A stretch of 64,000 nt of DNA from Clostridia bacterium. Its GTDB lineage: Bacteria; Bacillota; Clostridia; Oscillospirales; CAG-272. This document shows positions 7,691 to 53,704 of this stretch, one piece after another; positions within the stretch are counted from its first letter, which is position 1, and each line of letters begins with the position of its first letter. Position numbers and translations under genes: made by a program. The notes beneath the pieces were generated by a model. The model had not been told where the DNA came from. It did no database searches and was given only the letters and a program-made list of their open reading frames with translations. The stretch is taken from NCBI GenBank assembly GCA_017504785.1, contig JAFVQL010000010.1, forward strand, positions 25,165-89,164, given 5' to 3'.

Positions 7691-9298
7691 TCAATCCACC
7701 ACAACGCGGCAAATGCCGAGATCGCTGTTTCCAAGCACCTGGATCATATCCACCAAAAGCTGATGCTCCTCTACGGGGAACTGCGTGAAGGAGAGATCCA
7801 CGGTATCCTCCGAGGGGATCGCGGCCTTGACCTTGATAAACACGTGCTCCTTCTTGAAGTAGCGAATGGTGTCCGCCATGAGCTGCTGAATGCGCGTCAT
7901 TACGTTGGGGTCTACGGGGTGGCGGAAGATGAGATGCACCTTTTTCTGCGTATAGGTGTATATCGGATCTACAGGCGAATTCGCTGCCATAGCAGCGCGG
8001 GCTTCCTCTGCCTTGCGAGCCTCTTCTGCGAGGCGGGCTTCTTCTGCGAGGCGGGCTTCTTCTGCGAGGCGAGCCTCTTCTGCGAGGCGGGCTTCTTCTG
8101 CCTTGCGAGCCTCTTCTGCAAGACGGGCTTCTTCTGCCTTGCGAGCCTCTTCTGCAAGGCGGGCTTCCTCTGCGAGGCGAGCCTCTTCTGCAAGGCGGGC
8201 TTCCTCTGCGAGGCGAGCCTCTTCTGCAAGGCGAGCTTCTTCTGCGAGGCGGGCTTCTTCTGCGAGGCGAGCCTCTTCTGCGAGGCGGGCTTCTTCTGCG
8301 AGGCGGGCTTCTTCTGCGAGGCGAGCCTCTTCTGCAAGGCGGGCTTCTTCTGCGAGGCGAGCCTCTTCTTCCTTGCGAAGCTCGATTGCTTCCAACGCCT
8401 GTGCGGCCAAGCGATCTCTTTCCTTCGCTTCCCACTCCAGCCTTGCCTGATTCTGCGCCTGGCGGCGAAGCTCGATCTCGCGCTCGGCGCGGTTCAGCTC
8501 GTGCGCCTTGATCTCTGCATCCAATGCAAGACGCTTGCGCTCCAGCTCATATTCTCTTCGCATAAGCTCCTGCTCTTTTTCAAGCATTTCCGCGCGAAGC
8601 TTTTTCTCCATTTCCGCGCGAAGCGCATCCATGTCTACGGCAGGCGCCACGGGCTCTTCAAGCGCAAAGCCTTCTTGTAAGAGTTCTTCTTCCGTTTCTT
8701 CGGTATCTGCAAGAGAAGCTTCTTCAAATGCTTCTTCCAAGTGTTCTTGTGCAACCATTTCTTCGGATGCGAAATCGAACGCCTCGTTCTCTTCGGGGGC
8801 TGCTTCAGTCACGTCTTGCGAAAAAGGCGCATCTTCCGTTTCTTCCCCGTCAAATATCTCGGCTTGCGCGCAAACTACATCCTCTTCGATCGGCGCATCT
8901 TCCGCTTCGGAAAGCGCCTCGGCCTCTTCCGATGCCTCGGCTTCCTCAAGGGATTGCTCTTCCACCTCGGTCTGCTCGAAGATCTCTTCGTCCTCGCGCG
9001 CCTCTGCGGGCGCGGCCGTATTCTCCTGCACGAAGCTACGCATATAGGCCATTGCCTTTTCATACGCCTCGTCCTTTTCCTCACAAAGCGCAATCTGCGG
9101 TGCTTCGGGCGCGGGCTGTAATTTGCCAAGGATCTCTTCAAGCTTATCCTTGATCTGCCCTGCGTGCTCCGCGACCTTTTCATCGATCGTGATCTTCGTC
9201 AGCGTTCCGCGCTTCACGGCGCGCTTAATGATCTCGCGCCATTCCGTTACATTCTTGCGCCCCATGGCCGCACGGTATTTATCCGCATCGGCCTGCAC
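7691..9298 (-). CDS. Acidic coiled-coil protein with 21 tandem EEAR[LKA]A hexapeptides, function unknown
   Basis: 535 aa from a GTG start at 9298 with a weak RBS. The order is an N-terminal basic segment, a long Glu/Asp-rich region, heptad-like REYELERKRLALDAEIKAHELNRAEREIELRR, the repeat tract, then a ~95-aa globular C-terminus (DPIYTYTQKKVHLIFRHPVDPNVMTRIQQLMADTIRYF...). Confidence 0.75.
   Translation of the reverse strand: MQADADKYRAAMGRKNVTEWREIIKRAVKRGTLTKITIDEKVAEHAGQIKDKLEEILGKLQPAPEAPQIALCEEKDEAYEKAMAYMRSFVQENTAAPAEAREDEEIFEQTEVEEQSLEEAEASEEAEALSEAEDAPIEEDVVCAQAEIFDGEETEDAPFSQDVTEAAPEENEAFDFASEEMVAQEHLEEAFEEASLADTEETEEELLQEGFALEEPVAPAVDMDALRAEMEKKLRAEMLEKEQELMRREYELERKRLALDAEIKAHELNRAEREIELRRQAQNQARLEWEAKERDRLAAQALEAIELRKEEEARLAEEARLAEEARLAEEARLAEEARLAEEARLAEEARLAEEARLAEEARLAEEARLAEEARLAEEARLAEEARKAEEARLAEEARKAEEARLAEEARLAEEARLAEEARLAEEARKAEEARAAMAANSPVDPIYTYTQKKVHLIFRHPVDPNVMTRIQQLMADTIRYFKKEHVFIKVKAAIPSEDTVDLSFTQFPVEEHQLLVDMIQVLGNSDLGICRVVVD
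7991..8368. repeat. Tandem 18-bp repeat x21 (encodes EEARLA x17, EEARKA x3, EEARAA x1 on the minus strand)
   Basis: 378 nt of units such as GCGAGGCGGGCTTCTTCT, GCGAGGCGAGCCTCTTCT and GCAAGGCGGGCTTCCTCT. The units differ mostly at synonymous positions. All six frames are open here, which produces several spurious track ORFs. Confidence 0.95.
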
Positions 9299-9313: not shown

Positions 9314-9754
9314 CTACTCGCGCACCTTCTGCGGCACGTCCTCTCCGAGCGTGAAGCGGATCTCGCCCGCCGCCACGTCATCACAGACCGTGAAGTTTCT
9401 TCCCTCTCCCACACGTTGCCAACGGATCCAAAGATCCTTGATCGCGCGTCCGCTCTCCGAGATCAGAAGGCGGCGATAGGTAAACTCCCCCTGCGGATGC
9501 TCCATATAGGTCCCCGGTGCAAATACGAGCTGCAATGCGATATCGCTCTTGGCAAGCCCCGAGATCATCATGCGGCTCTCGATCTCTGCCGTCAGCTGGA
9601 TCGCCATTTCGCTTACAAAGCTTGACGAATAAGTATTTTCAAGATACGCCGCATCGGTTGCCGCGATTTTGAAGGACATCGCGCCCGCTACGGCAAGCTC
9701 TACCTCTGCCATAGCCGCTCCGTCTGCGGTTTTATGTAAAAAATCGGTACGCAT
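9314..9754 (-). CDS. Hypothetical protein (146 aa), first gene of the 9754->5126 operon
   Basis: ATG 9754 has AGGAGA 7 nt upstream, and the next gene starts 15 nt after its stop. I recognised no motif. Confidence 0.65.
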   Translation of the reverse strand: MRTDFLHKTADGAAMAEVELAVAGAMSFKIAATDAAYLENTYSSSFVSEMAIQLTAEIESRMMISGLAKSDIALQLVFAPGTYMEHPQGEFTYRRLLISESGRAIKDLWIRWQRVGEGRNFTVCDDVAAGEIRFTLGEDVPQKVRE

Positions 9755-9934
9755 GAAACGTCTCCTTATATTATTCTTTTAATTATTTTAACATAAATAA
9801 AACGAAAAAGCAACAGTTTTTTGTCATTTTCCGCGCATGCAAAAAAATATTTTTGAAAATATTTCAAAGATTTTCCGCTCGCGATGAAAGGGTTTTGTTT
9901 TTTGATTTCGCGTTCCCGATCTTTGAGAAAAAAG

Positions 9935-10057
9935 AAAACGCGAGAAATTCGCAGAATTTCAACCTTGATCCAAAAAAGCGCATCAAAAAGAGAACGGAGA
10001 TAAAGACTTTTTTTCGTCCTTATCTCCGTTTTTTATTCGGTTATGCCAAAAGGCGTT
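9935..10057 (+). repeat. Extra copy of the 3' module (hairpin P2 + terminator) of the intergenic element
   Basis: About 98% identical to 10152-10276, with a 217-bp offset. It contains hairpin GAAATTC-gca-GAATTTC (9944-9960) and the terminator stem GGAGATAAAGAC/GTCCTTATCTCC (9996-10027) followed by TTTTTT. Confidence 0.9.
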
Positions 10058-10063
10058 AACATT

Positions 10064-10262
10064 GGGGCAATACGGATTTTCGGCAGAAATTTTCGGCTAA
10101 CGACCGAGAGCGGTATTTTCATACCGCGAGGGAGGAAACGAAAATAGAATAAAAACGGGAGAAATTCGCAGAATTTCAACCTTGATCCAAAAAAAAGCGC
10201 ATCAAGAAGAGAACGGAGATAAAGACTTTTTTTCGTCCTTATCTCCGTTTTTTATTCGGTTA
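10064..10262 (+). ncRNA. Candidate structured RNA / modular intergenic element, copy A (unassigned family)
   Basis: Homologous to 52488-52697. Hairpin P1 is GCGGTAT-tttc-ATACCGC (10110-10127). Hairpin P2 is GAAATTC-gca-GAATTTC (10161-10177). A rho-independent terminator sits at 10215-10246 and is followed by a T-tract. Both flanking genes are on the minus strand, so this would be a separate + strand unit. Confidence 0.5.
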
Positions 10263-10291
10263 TGCCAAAAGGCGTTTGCCCCAAAAAAAGA

Positions 10292-11257
10292 TTATTTTTG
10301 GAGAAGGTGAATAGCAAATCCCGCGATCTCGTCCTTAAAGTAAACGAACTTGGGCTTGCCGGTCTTCTCGTCGTAAGTAATGGAGCTTTCGTCAAATTCG
10401 ATGCCCATTCTCTTGAAATATGCCATTGCACGGTCTACGAAATTGGTGCGGATCGCAATGTGACCGCACTTGCCGGGGCCCTTCTGCTTCATGAATTCGA
10501 ATGCATCGCCTGCGAAGATGGACTTGCTTCCATCCTTCAATGCAAGGCCGAACATCATCTCGAAGAGCTTTGCAGCCTTTGCAGCCTCGTCGGCATTCTC
10601 GTTATTGATACCCATGTGAAGGAACTCAAGACCGAGCATGGTCTTCACCGCATTCTTCGTCAGCGCGGTGATCTCATCCCACTTCTTCTCTCTGATCAGG
10701 TCATCCTTTACCATGAAGGAGCCGCCGCAAGCAACGATCTTGTTAAACTTGAGGTACTCAAGAAGGTTATCGGCGCTGATACCGCCGGTGGGCATGAACT
10801 TCAGCTGACCGTAGGGCGCGGCCATAGCCTTCAGCATCTTCAGGCCGCCTGCCGCCTCTGCGGGGAAAAACTTAACCGTGGTCAGACCAAGCTCAAGCGC
10901 CGCCTCAACGTCCGAGGGGTTGGAGCAACCGGGGAGCATGGGAACACCTTTGGAAAGGCAGTACGAGGTAACCTTGGGATTGAGTCCGGGAGAAACGAGG
11001 AACTTGGAGCCTGCCGCGATCGCCGCATCTACCTGCTCCGTGGTCAGCACCGTGCCGGCGCCAACGAGCATTTCGGGATAAGCCTCGGTGATCTTCTTGA
11101 TCGCCTCTGCCGCACAAGCGGTACGGAAGGTGATCTCCGCTGCGGGCAATCCGCCGTCGATCAGCGCCTTTGCAAGGGGAAGCGCATCGTCTGCATTCTC
11201 GATCTTAATCACCGGGATCAGACCGATGGAATAAAGCTGTTCAATCATCTTGTTCAT
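10292..11257 (-). CDS. eda: KDPG/KHG aldolase (Eda) fused to a C-terminal VOC/glyoxalase-like domain
   Basis: ORF 10292..11284. I moved the start to ATG 11257 (MNKMIEQLYSIGLIPVI), which has RBS AAGGAG. Aldolase motifs: GLPAAEITFRT, GAGTVL, KFFPAE, PTGGI. An extra ~110 aa follows (LGLEFLHMGINNEN...GHIAIRTNFVDRAMAYF...FAIHLLQK). Confidence 0.85.
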   Translation of the reverse strand: MNKMIEQLYSIGLIPVIKIENADDALPLAKALIDGGLPAAEITFRTACAAEAIKKITEAYPEMLVGAGTVLTTEQVDAAIAAGSKFLVSPGLNPKVTSYCLSKGVPMLPGCSNPSDVEAALELGLTTVKFFPAEAAGGLKMLKAMAAPYGQLKFMPTGGISADNLLEYLKFNKIVACGGSFMVKDDLIREKKWDEITALTKNAVKTMLGLEFLHMGINNENADEAAKAAKLFEMMFGLALKDGSKSIFAGDAFEFMKQKGPGKCGHIAIRTNFVDRAMAYFKRMGIEFDESSITYDEKTGKPKFVYFKDEIAGFAIHLLQK

Positions 11258-43821: not shown

Positions 43822-43918
43822 TCTATATTCTTCCGTTCTTTTTTGTTAATCGTATTTTCTGCGAAGTGTTTTTGCAGAATATGCGCGGCGGCACGTTTCA
43901 GCCACGCATAAAAAGCGG

Positions 43919-44110
43919 TTTTCCACAAAGCGAAAACTGCATTTTTCCCGAATGTCAATAGGGTTTTTAAAAAAAATCAAAATTTCGAGTTTTCCACAGC
44001 GTTTTCTGTGGAAAATGTGGAAAATACCGCGGACAAACCTATGAAACTCGGGGTTTTTGGAAAAAAATTCCTGTGTTTTCCACATTCGCGATTGTGGACA
44101 ATGTGGAAAA
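43919..44110. promoter_or_regulatory. DnaA-box cluster (7 boxes, each one mismatch from TTATCCACA)
   Basis: TTTTCCACA at 43919, 43990 and 44076. TGTGGAAAA at 44007, 44016 and 44102. TGTGGACAA at 44093. Two identical 35-bp modules are present (forward box, 8-nt gap, two abutting reverse boxes). Confidence 0.8.
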
Positions 44111-44276
44111 CTCGGTCTATCTTTTTCCGCACTTTTTATGCGAAAACGGCGTTTTTCACAAAAAATTCCTTTTTTCGCCTTTCCGCATACTGCCTTGATT
44201 TTTCGGGCTTTCGGACGGAGTATTTTCTACGAACATCTTTCTGTTTTCGCTTTTCGGCGGTTTGCAAAAAGCTTTT

Positions 44277-51573: not shown

Positions 51574-52455
51574 ATGCAAAAGAGCACGGAGCTTTTCACT
51601 TTTTCCGAGGATGGATCGCGCATGCTTCACACGGTGCAGGGGCTTTCTCTTCCGATACGGATCTCGGAATATCTGGGAGCGCACCTTTCACTTTCGGTCA
51701 CGCTCATCAAGCGCATCAAATACGGCGGCGTTTTTCTTAATGGCGAGAACGTGCACATGCGCGCCGAGGTGAAAAACGGCGACGAAATTGAGATCCTCTT
51801 CCCCGAAGAAAAAAGCGAGGGCATCCCGCCGATCGATCTGCCGCTTGCGGTGCTATACGAGGACGCGCATCTTTTGGCAGTCTGCAAGCCGAAGAATATG
51901 CCAACGCACCCCTCGAAGGGCAATTCCCTGCCGACGCTTGCAAACGCCGTGATGCACTACTACGGAAAGAATTTCGTTTTTCGCGCGGTCACAAGGCTTG
52001 ACAGAGATACCTCGGGCATCGTGCTGATCGCGAAAACGCAGTATGCCGCGGCAAAGCTTTCCGAGGATATGAAGGCGGGGCGCTTCGGCAAGATCTATAC
52101 CGCTGTGGTGAAGGGCGTACCCGATCCAAAGGGCGGGCACATCGATGCCCCCATACGGCGCGAGGCAGAGGGCTCGATGAAGCGCATCGTGGCACCCGAC
52201 GGAAAAAGCGCTTTGACGGAATATCGCACGCTCTGCGTGCGCGAGGACGGCAATGCCGTTCTCTCCGTTCGCCTTTATACGGGGCGCACGCATCAGATCC
52301 GCGTGCATCTTTCGCATATCGGGCATCCGCTTCTCGGAGATTTTCTATACGGAGAAAAGAATGAGGAAGGGTATCTTCTGCACTGCACAAAAATGGAGCT
52401 TCCGCATCCGATCACGGGAGAAATGCTAATTATAGTTAGCGATCCGCCGTTTTGA
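51574..52455 (+). CDS. RluA-family pseudouridine synthase (second paralogue)
   Basis: 293 aa with an S4-like N-terminus, the catalytic motif TRLDRDTSGIVLIAK, and GRTHQIRVHL. Confidence 0.9.
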   Translation: MQKSTELFTFSEDGSRMLHTVQGLSLPIRISEYLGAHLSLSVTLIKRIKYGGVFLNGENVHMRAEVKNGDEIEILFPEEKSEGIPPIDLPLAVLYEDAHLLAVCKPKNMPTHPSKGNSLPTLANAVMHYYGKNFVFRAVTRLDRDTSGIVLIAKTQYAAAKLSEDMKAGRFGKIYTAVVKGVPDPKGGHIDAPIRREAEGSMKRIVAPDGKSALTEYRTLCVREDGNAVLSVRLYTGRTHQIRVHLSHIGHPLLGDFLYGEKNEEGYLLHCTKMELPHPITGEMLIIVSDPPF

Positions 52456-52487: not shown

Positions 52488-52697
52488 GGGGCGAACGGAT
52501 TTAGAGCAGAAATTTTCGGCTGACGAGCGATAATTGTACAAGAGTACAATGAGCGAGGAAACGGAAATAGAATAAAAAACTTTTGATTAAATGGAGAAAA
52601 CCGCAGGTTTTCAACCTTAATACTTTTAAATTTGCATAAAGCAACGGCAGAAACACTGTTTTTCAACAATGCTTCTGCCGTTTTTTATTCGGTTATA
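52488..52697 (+). ncRNA. Candidate structured RNA / modular intergenic element, copy B
   Basis: Homologous to 10064-10262. P1 is ATTGTAC-aaga-GTACAAT (52533-52550). P2 is GAAAACC-gca-GGTTTTC (52596-52612). The terminator stem is GGCAGAA.../...TTCTGCC (52646-52679), followed by the same GTTTTTTATTCGGTTAT tail. It starts 33 nt after the RluA-family stop codon. Confidence 0.5.
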
Positions 52698-52843
52698 ATC
52701 AAGCGAAGCATATCTGCAAGCTTGCTTGCAAGTATGCGAGCGCAGATTGCTCGCGAGAGTATTCGCTTCCAGCGAATGTAGCACGCAGTGCCCGCCTTGG
52801 CGGTTCTCTCGCGATATGAGTATGCCTAAATACGACAGCCCCA

Positions 52844-53704
52844 TTAGAGCACCTTGGAAAGGAAATCCTTGAGCCTTGCATCCTTGGGGTTTCCAAAGAG
52901 CTCTGCGGGAGATCCTTCTTCCTTGATCTTGCCCTCGTCCATAAACAGAACGCGGTCTGCCACCTCGCGGGCAAAGCCCATCTCGTGGGTGACGATCACC
53001 ATCGTCATACCCTCCTTTGCGAGCTGCTTCATAAGATCCAATACCTCGCCGACCATCTCGGGGTCCAAAGCGGAGGTAGGCTCGTCAAAGAGGATCACCT
53101 CGGGATTCATTGCAAGAGCGCGCACAATCGCAATTCTCTGCTTCTGACCGCCCGAAAGCGTGGAGGGATATACGTTTGCTTTTTCTTCAAGGCCGATGCG
53201 GCGAAGAAGCGACATTGCATTCTCCTCGGCCTTGGCCTTGATCTCGGCCTCGGTCGTTTCGAGCGGAAGGAGCGCCTTTTTCTCTTTCTTAAAAAGGTTT
53301 GCAAGCCTGATAAAGAAATTCTTTCTCTTCTTTGCTCTCAAGTCTCTTACGCCGACGTAAACCGGTGCGAGCATAATGTTTTCTTTTACGGTTTTGTTAT
53401 TAAACAGATTGAACTGCTGGAACACCATGCCGATGTGCTCGCGATGCTTGTTGATATTGACGCTCATGTCGGCAATATCCACACCGTCGAAGATGATCGA
53501 GCCGCCCGAGGGGTCCTCCATGCAGTTGATGCAACGAAGGAAGGTGGATTTACCGCATCCCGAAGGGCCGATGATGGCAATCTGCTCACCGTCGCGGATA
53601 TCAAGGTCAACGCCGCGAAGAACCTCGAGATTGCCGAATTTTTTTGTTAAGCCTCTGACAGACAAAACCGTTTTATTTAAAGCCATTTCTTTTTCCATGA
53701 TCAT
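52844..53704 (-). CDS. Amino-acid ABC transporter ATP-binding protein (GlnQ-like) with a ~34-aa basic insertion
   Basis: 286 aa. It has [24 protein letters not shown] and [11 protein letters not shown], and forms an ATGA overlap with the permease stop. The insertion [34 protein letters not shown] lies between the Q-loop region and the signature motif. Confidence 0.92.

Follow-up and report, generated by a model that had tools for sequence, protein, structure and literature searches.

A modular, structured intergenic repeat of uncultured Clostridia that may supply a bidirectional terminator

This study concerns an intergenic element found at two places in a 64,000-nucleotide (nt) stretch of Clostridia bacterium DNA (GenBank assembly GCA_017504785.1, contig JAFVQL010000010.1, positions 25,165 to 89,164 of the forward strand; hereafter the window, in whose numbering all positions are given). 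At the first place, locus A, a partial and a full copy of the element, both on the plus strand, follow each other in an intergenic gap whose neighbours both lie on the minus strand, namely the gene of a 687-aa repeat protein and a KDPG-aldolase-family gene. At the second, locus B, a diverged full copy sits between a plus-strand pseudouridine synthase gene ending at 52455 and a minus-strand ABC ATPase gene ending at 52844 (both assigned by Pfam). An initial annotation of the window had singled out locus A as a candidate structured RNA and had left three options for its nature: a small RNA, a 3'-untranslated region (3'-UTR)-type element, or a BOX/RUP-like modular repeat that carries terminators. 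The last of these turns out to be the best of the three, since the element is multi-copy, modular, arranged in tandem arrays and present or absent among strains.

The full copy at locus A (unit A) covers 10064-10282, 219 nt running from GGGGCAAT to TTTGCCCC. The three hairpins described in the initial annotation are there, at 10110-10127, 10161-10177 and 10212-10249 with T6. Its outline of the unit, 10064-10262 and ending at the terminator, needs to be extended by about 25 nt to 10282. In the alignment of copies, conservation persists 3' of the T-tract through GGTTATGCCTAAATRCGACAGCCCC, and this tail and the 5' end, GGGGCGAACGGATTTAGAGC, are inverted complements; because the conserved tail past the T-tract pairs with the 5' end, we place the boundaries at 10064 and 10282. 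The fold is well beyond chance expectation, its z-score being -3.4 for the unit as first drawn and -5.3 for the corrected unit A, compared with -6.3 for the copy at locus B. Reading unit A from its 5' end, the terminal arm (10064-10084) holds T1, GGGGCAA at 10064-10070, and T2, TTTT(C)GGC at 10077-10084, whose partners in the minimum-free-energy fold are 10276-10282 and 10264-10270, respectively. The module 1 core follows (10089-10145), closed by helix P1a, ATTTTCG at 10089-10095 with CGAAAAT at 10139-10145, inside which lie, in turn, a GA-rich internal loop, a 2-bp helix (10104-10105 paired to 10130-10131), another GA loop and hairpin P1 (GCGGTAT-tttc-ATACCGC, 10110-10127). Next come the 5' arm of a long-range helix P2 (GAATAAAAAC, 10147-10156, partner at 10247-10257), hairpin P3 (10158-10181), which is GAAATTC-gca-GAATTTC with flanking GG/CC and whose core at 10161-10177 was the P2 of the initial annotation, and the terminator stem P4 (10212-10249), with 15 pairs between 10212-10226 and 10235-10249. 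P4 is a feature of both strands, followed on its 3' side by a T-tract with T6 on the plus strand and by TCTCTTCTTGATGCGCTTTTTTTT on the minus strand. The plus-strand T-tract, GTTTTTTATTC at 10247-10257, is at the same time the 3' arm of P2, and with the conserved tail beyond it, GGTTATGCCAAAAGGCGTTTGCCCC (GGTTATGCC..GCCCC), which includes the 3' arms of T2 and T1, it makes up 10247-10282. The aldolase stop codon, on the minus strand at 10292-10294, lies 10 nt beyond the end of the unit.

The partial copy (9935-10057, plus strand) consists of module 2 only, that is P3, P4, the T-tract and the tail, without module 1 and without the last 6 nt of the tail (TGCCCC), and is joined to unit A by a 6-nt junction, AACATT, read from the sequence at 10058-10063 on the same strand. 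The upstream duplication of the 3' module, already reported in the initial annotation, is reproduced by a repeat finder, which matches 9935-9977 to 10152-10194 at 98% and 9972-10057 to 10191-10276 at 99% identity; the offset is 217-219 nt because of a 2-nt indel. The P4 hairpin of the partial copy (9993-10030, both strands) has terminator anatomy in either direction, with 15 pairs on the minus strand if G-T is allowed, and with one A-C mismatch followed by T6 on the plus strand. The 90 nt before the partial copy (9845-9934) were considered as a decayed module 1 and rejected, the alignment giving z = 0.7 and the 32/90 identities at the offset of the duplication falling short of the background maximum, 34; a 15/20 match upstream of the partial copy (repeat family D7) is probably due to chance. 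Locus A does not differ among the strains on record, save for one contig, L064 (L-numbers, from L001 onward, denote fetched loci or contigs used for comparison), which is 219 nt shorter and has one module 2. This could be a recombination product or an assembly effect.

The copy at locus B (unit B; 52488-52842, plus strand) measures 355 nt including a nested insert, with its tail at 52824-52842. Its module 1 core occupies 52512-52568 with P1 at 52533-52550, all on the plus strand, and its P4 with T-tract occupies 52646-52689 and is again a feature of both strands; the hairpin itself (52646-52679) has two A-C mismatches in the sense stem, which are G-U on the minus strand. The nested mini-element, 127 nt and rich in hairpins, lies on the plus strand at 52696-52822 after GGTTA, its boundaries being ambiguous by 1 nt. 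Unit B leaves a gap of 32 nt on one side and of 1 nt before the ATPase stop codon on the other; it fills the convergent spacer and there is therefore no separate terminator at locus B. It lies 42.4 kb from unit A, and a repeat finder aligns 52495-52629 with it at 65-76% identity. Between the two units the hairpins stay paired through two-sided changes, at 5/7 pairs in P1 and 2/7 in the second hairpin, and the terminator stem is entirely different. That a diverged copy some 42 kb away preserves its hairpins by compensatory changes had been seen in the initial annotation; the observation holds and now extends to 57 copies.

The fold was derived from copies aligned independently of it. On an unfitted MAFFT alignment of 16 full copies, RNAalifold predicted 41 pairs, 20 of them compensated, in the helices T1 and T2 at the ends, P1a, the 2-bp helix, P1 and P2. 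The 2-bp helix has tandem GA on either side, in the near-invariant loops GCUGACGA-GC-GAGA and GA-GC-GAGGAAA. P2 is a long-range helix of AGAAUAAAAAAC with GUUUUUUAUUC, which becomes AUAGAAAACAAAAU with AUUUUGUUUUCGAU in L001 and AUAACAAACGAAAA with UUUUCGUUUGUGGU in L006. Since P2 uses the terminator T-tract, that tract is also the 3' arm closing a three-way junction with P3 and P4. A covariance model, searched over the window and 45 loci, returned 57 matches, exactly three of them in the window: unit B at 205 bits, unit A at 182 bits over model positions 1-232, and a weak match at the partial copy (9909-10063, 42 bits). In the 57 model-aligned copies 95.0% of the cells are paired, against 40-49% with the 3' partners slid, and 39/48 pairs show double changes, values attained in 0/500 shuffles; a model-fitted alignment does lean to the modelled structure. 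Double changes occur at 5/7 pairs of P1 and 10/11 pairs of P2, the T-tract thus covarying with its distant partner, and in all five inner pairs of P3, which are 98.8% paired. P1a, invariant in the first set of copies because it was fixed by the scan pattern, covaries freely in the second (AAAUCGUC/GGCGAU, AAAUUGUC/GGCAAU, AAAUCCUC/GAGGAU). T1 and T2 likewise covary among copies, as does the 2-bp helix of the core, and the two ends would either pair with each other or act as terminal inverted repeats.

Two scans gathered the copies. The first, an exact pattern run on one genome per species, gave 17 stretches, among them one coding-sequence false positive (L016). Its true copies come from seven species represented by metagenome-assembled genomes (MAGs), labelled Eubacteriales bacterium, uncultured Ruminococcus sp. 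or uncultured Clostridia bacterium, with six loci in one MAG and three in another. The second scan, using a pattern from the internal loop only, added 26 metagenome contigs, nearly all from one metagenome. Units in the family measure about 220-240 nt. Head-to-tail arrays occur in L009, L012, L004/L011, L024, L026, L028 and L029, with junctions of 0-6 nt, and several arrays open with a module-2-only copy, as locus A does. Besides 9935-10057, partial or disrupted copies are found in L003 and L033, and L044 has an insertion in the core. In L043 and L030 module 2 is swapped for another, the core still preceding a terminator-like hairpin. Short tandem units of about 105 nt at L009 3750-3860 and L010 2204-2414 (minus strand), with a diverged core (ACGACUCGAAG-hairpin-CGAGUGGGAG) and their own closing helix and without module 2, look like a related, smaller module family.

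No assigned family covers these copies. Searched against Rfam 15, the whole window gave nothing at the gathering score, and at E up to 10 the two loci gave hairpin look-alikes far below threshold; 13 further loci showed no recurring match. The initial annotation could assign no RNA family by eye, and the database search agrees. Pattern scans of plasmids, phages and viral contigs found no copies, and a literature search with sequence strings of the element returned nothing relevant. A hammerhead ribozyme, which has CUGANGA and GAAA in a three-helix junction with a cleavage site, was considered because of the look-alike CUGACGAG..GAAAC in the core, which reads GGCUGACGAG..CGAGGAAAC. It was rejected: the flanking arms pair together into a two-way junction, an extra GAG precedes GAAA, locus A, L014, L017, L027, L031 and L038 have A in place of the essential G, and no hammerhead model in Rfam scores. 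A tracrRNA/Cas9 context was also dismissed, the 1096-aa neighbour being AddB (PD-(D/E)XK and ADDB_N domains).

The helices do not all favour the same strand. P1a, the 2-bp helix and P1, which make up the core helices, have 51 G-U against 1 A-C on the sense strand, and the minimum free energy of the core is lower in sense in 44/44 copies, by 7 kcal/mol on average. The T1/T2 duplex is stabler in sense in 32/38 copies, and the P2 duplex in sense in 16 and in antisense in 3. P3 shows no strand bias. The P4 region, in contrast, is stabler in antisense in 39/44 copies; the hairpin alone averages -15.6 kcal/mol in antisense versus -11.7 in sense, with 57 versus 17 G-U pairs. At locus B, the insert-free allele L045, whose P4 is identical to that of the window, gives -22.5 kcal/mol and 15 pairs in antisense versus -12.9 kcal/mol and 13 pairs in sense, and a terminator scan called both locus A P4 hairpins as 15-pair and terminator-like on the minus strand only. 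The bulk of the fold is selected on the sense strand and P4 on the antisense strand; the element is read on both strands. The initial annotation had placed a terminator at the plus-strand end of the unit; the plus-strand anatomy is present, and the hairpin is on average tuned to the opposite strand.

Anatomy and gene context both suggest what P4 might be doing. In 35/42 copies a P4 hairpin of -8 kcal/mol or lower has at least 6 U among the 10 nt directly after it, and 28 of those 35 additionally have an A-rich 5' flank, which together make a bidirectional design. A simple open reading frame (ORF) caller finds a convergent downstream neighbour in 21/27 copies, and in 18/21 of these its stop codon is no more than 26 nt, usually 2-26 nt, from the 3' end of the element; between convergent gene pairs the element occupies the whole spacer. 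Upstream, 14 copies have a co-oriented neighbour and 12 a divergent one, and divergent flanks on both sides are essentially absent. Copies thus sit where ordinary terminators sit, with their 3' end mostly a few nt from the stop codon of the convergent gene. The same counts bear on whether the element is a cis-regulatory leader, a riboswitch or attenuator acting through its terminator on the downstream gene. A structured domain followed by a hairpin and T-tract does look like an aptamer with its expression platform, but the downstream gene is co-oriented in only 6/27 copies, in the window both copies point at a convergent gene's 3' end, the promoter of the downstream gene in L014 comes after the element, and Rfam offers no match. 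Gene context refutes a leader for practical purposes, and we consider it extremely improbable.

A more serious alternative is that the copies are paralogous RNA genes, each unit, or an array cut into units, giving a stable RNA of about 220 nt whose paired ends and GA-rich core bind a protein, with genomic spread being secondary. By our count all helices but P4 are biased to the sense strand, including T1/T2 beyond the T-tract, and a terminator-like hairpin always follows the core, even where module 2 has been replaced in L043 and L030. Head-to-tail arrays with 0-6-nt junctions resemble polycistronic precursors, and tandem sheared G-A motifs are typical of protein-binding RNA. Promoters, however, do not fit. 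Sigma-70-type promoter-like sites, the sigma-70 consensus being the only one scored, occur within 160 nt upstream in sense in 4/43 copies versus 7.2 ± 2.4 in shuffles, and neither locus A nor locus B has a convincing one, in line with the initial annotation, which had found none directly upstream. In locus A and in the arrays each unit lies directly behind the terminator of the preceding unit. A discrete small RNA with its own promoter, about 200 nt long and ending at 10253 like the transcript that the initial annotation suggested looking for, accordingly finds no support, given the promoter counts and the position of the full copy behind the terminator of the partial one. The presence or absence of the element between strains and the existence of partial and disrupted copies also speak against RNA genes, and the orientation and stop-codon adjacency would better suit a repeat or terminator. 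On balance we think it unlikely, while still deserving attention, that the units are RNA genes.

Strain comparison at locus B shows the element in place of a terminator. The exact ABC ATPase protein is found on 24 contigs, and the adjoining spacer comes in four forms. In the first (L047, L053) an 85-nt spacer has an ordinary bidirectional terminator (AAAAATTAGGCGAGGATACCCTGCGGCATCCTCGCCTATTGTTTTTT) and the element is absent; the second (L045, L046, L049) has the element without insert; the third (the window, L048, L050-L052) has the element and the 127-nt insert after GGTTA; and the fourth (L044) resembles the third with a homologous 129-nt insert in the core loop after GGCTGA in addition. The flanking genes are 99-100% identical between strains up to both stop codons, and the allele difference is therefore confined to the spacer. 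An ordinary terminator has thus been replaced by the element in some strains, a replacement rather than a clean insertion, with no junction rule readable. Copies, moreover, spread or duplicate within genomes. A likeness of the terminator of the empty allele to the ends of the element was considered and dropped, the short similarities being alignable in several ways and no such hairpin occurring in the window. Among the few strains on record around the window no further filled or empty sites turned up.

The nested insert (127-129 nt) starts with TAAT[CT]AAGCGAAG, ends with GAGTA, and is present or absent among otherwise identical strains. Outside the window it is seen at L044 4182-4310, L005 5349-5475 and L014 5450-5576, the last two being the same insert at the same position as in the window. 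It uses two sites, GGTTA| and GGCTGA|, both 3' of TTCGGYT(G)A, in the orientation of the host element and with no target duplication at either of them. It folds as an independent domain without strand bias, and in the fetched DNA it is seen only within host elements, with no TnpA gene in sight. Judged from these two insertion sites, it may behave like an IS200/IS605-type palindrome-associated element. A further small module, module 0, is an optional hairpin of about 105 nt before many copies (L002, L005, L007, L013-L015, L020-L023, L025, L027, L031, L036-L038 and L040), absent from the window. Its stem of 17-20 bp (GCTGTCTCATTAAGAATTC with GAATTCTTAATGAGAACAGC) covaries, and the loop is A-rich and about 50 nt long. 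For the strand bias of module 0, a count by eye gives 7 G-U versus 1 A-C, but an energy comparison 11 versus 11. A promoter in its loop was considered and rejected, the loop being merely a loosely conserved A-rich stretch with no enrichment of promoter-like sites. The left end of module 0, GGGGCTGTCTCATTAAGAATTC, is the best inverted match to the 3' end of the element, at 16/20 against its reverse complement (read by eye).

This last match, together with the inverted-repeat ends, leads us to consider that the fold might act in single-stranded DNA, the element being a non-autonomous mobile element recognised, through its sense-strand hairpins and inverted ends, by a transposase or recombinase encoded elsewhere, for instance an HUH or IS200/IS605-like enzyme or a site-specific recombinase that uses the palindrome formed end to end. 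The GCCYC-N0-2-GRGGC junctions of the head-to-tail arrays, the polymorphism among strains and the selection on structure seemingly independent of local transcription would all suit such an element, and the nested insert, which at two sites follows TTCGGYT(G)A with no duplication of the target, hints at active single-strand transposition in these genomes. On the other side, no gene for such an enzyme lies near any copy, the left flanks have no conserved target motif, and the antisense tuning of P4 contradicts one folded strand. RNA is also where a 51:1 ratio of G-U to A-C and GA-rich loops are more typically seen. In 18/25 cases the sense strand is C-rich (7 being the other way), which is not the IS608-type expectation, though the measure is confounded by gene orientation; both window copies are on the C-rich strand because the GC skew of the plus strand is negative throughout the window, whose genes are mostly on the minus strand. 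We judge this explanation to be a little less probable still than that of the RNA genes. By eye, the sequence flanking about 25 copies (L001-L043) tends to be rich in A 5' of the element (AAAAAG|GGGC) and rich in T 3' of it (GCCCC|TTTTT), so that the inverted symmetry reaches past the conserved ends, like an A-tract/T-tract frame.

Taken jointly, and with confidence only modestly in its favour, we propose that loci A and B are copies of a previously undescribed interspersed, modular, structured intergenic family of uncultured gut/rumen Clostridia, a new BOX- or SPRITE-like repeat bringing a bidirectional terminator with it. Between its A-rich and T-rich flanks, P4 would act as a bidirectional intrinsic terminator, with the hairpin tuned to the transcript of the convergent neighbour, which it probably serves in the main. 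P4 might also end sense transcripts, less efficiently, so that the neighbour would be shielded from antisense read-through. The sense fold, then, might be kept in one of two ways: either as RNA within read-through or 3'-UTR transcripts, for instance in the pseudouridine synthase mRNA at locus B, or as a single-stranded intermediate for copying the element. Such an intermediate would explain why the fold is intact, and compensated in its own way, in copies with no visible means of sense transcription, such as the full copy of locus A. In a bolder version, which we regard as rather unlikely, the sense fold, with its paired ends, GA-rich core and three-way junction, would form a class of functional RNA that is new, serving as a module for protein binding or processing, made from read-through or array transcripts and joined to an antisense-tuned terminator cassette, the two RNA-level functions, one per strand, propagating together.

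Several points weigh against the proposed structured repeat with a terminator. Termination and any transcript are deduced from anatomy alone. The copies come from few genomes and mostly from one metagenome; being related and from few sources, they make the cell counts overstate the independent events, and the near-invariance of the GA loops is partly an ascertainment effect, built in because both collection scans used core-derived patterns. Gene context comes from a crude caller, which mis-called locus A, where the true neighbour is the convergent aldolase at 10 nt. Nor is a mobility mechanism apparent: no transposase, reverse transcriptase or recombinase recurs near the copies (no TnpB or IscB), where only an AraC-like family recurs, no target-site duplication is seen by eye at the flanks of about 25 copies, no conserved target motif was found there, and about 350 kb of fetched loci hold no longer autonomous element with matching ends. 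A clean insertion junction is likewise missing, the locus B alleles differing over the whole spacer including both stop codons. Finally, it is not obvious why a merely selfish repeat should need to conserve its core in several MAG species.

If our proposal holds, part of the terminator repertoire in these Clostridia is a repeated cassette and not a set of locally evolved hairpins, and with this cassette comes a structured domain that several species-level genomes have conserved. The split between strands could then bring to light either a protein-binding RNA motif not described before or a folded intermediate belonging to some unknown mobility mechanism. In practical terms, the covariance model lets annotators mask or label copies and keeps terminator or small-RNA predictors from counting each as a separate discovery.

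A few other features of the window were noted along the way. The gene of the 687-aa repeat protein next to locus A is split by an in-frame TAG at 9314-9316 (minus strand) into ORFs of 146 and 535 aa; an otherwise identical metagenome contig (ERZ27256852 k141_2128391) has AAG at this codon, the difference being either a nonsense polymorphism or a sequencing difference. Within this gene, 7920-8473 consists of about 21 tandem copies of an 18-nt unit, the only Pfam signal being a sub-threshold one to a histidine-rich repeat family, and the length of the protein varies between strains (585, 687, others). On the other side of locus A, the aldolase-family product (10292-11257, minus strand, 321 aa) has a KDPG/KHG aldolase domain at residues 16-208 of the 330-aa ORF, or about 7-199 of the product, followed by a C-terminal segment of about 110-120 aa without Pfam match. 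A 455-nt gap at 43822-44276, between a UvrD-like helicase and a radical-SAM gene, keeps its length in all fetched strains and is, by the covariance model, not a copy of the element.

Lastly, we compare the element with known systems. The initial annotation had raised the terminal part of a known insertion sequence (IS) or MITE (a miniature transposable element with inverted repeats) as a possible identity; no known IS or MITE was identified. Classical MITEs, ERIC and Correia elements (in part after the background of PMC3049150) share with it that they are non-coding and AT-rich, stay below 400 bp, have inverted ends and a highly paired predicted structure, vary in presence between strains and can affect the transcripts they enter. 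In contrast to these, the present element has no target-site duplication or matching transposase, its internal helices covary, and its strand bias indicates selection in single-stranded form; of the features by which MITEs are recognised, it shows terminal inverted repeats, multiple copies and polymorphism, but not the target-site duplication. Intrinsic bidirectional terminators in general resemble P4, a GC-containing stem of 10-15 bp between convergent genes whose 5' flank is A-rich and whose 3' flank is U-rich; unlike an ordinary one, P4 is embedded in a repeat of about 220 nt, and its U-tract also pairs with an A-rich segment some way off to form a covarying helix. BOX of Streptococcus pneumoniae, boxA-boxB(n)-boxC, is a modular small interspersed repeat whose modules can be absent or repeated (PMC3049150). 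BOX and our element have in common terminal inverted repeats that pair in the predicted transcript fold, clustering or nesting with other repeats, and over-representation between convergent genes (PMC3049150). The present element differs from BOX in its covarying multi-helix fold, in a near-invariant GA-rich core across several MAG species and in the terminator placed in a three-way junction; it also belongs to another host clade and has no known IS with matching ends. No sequence relationship is claimed. SPRITE, an interspersed repeat resembling an intrinsic terminator and occurring with strong enrichment at the 3' ends of genes in convergent orientation, has no cognate IS (PMC3049150). Whereas SPRITE is a single 18-bp duplex with a U-rich tract, here the terminator is an arm of a larger fold, tuned to the opposite strand and accompanied by a conserved core of about 80 nt. 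By analogy, then, the element appears to work like a fusion of BOX and SPRITE while being a member of neither.

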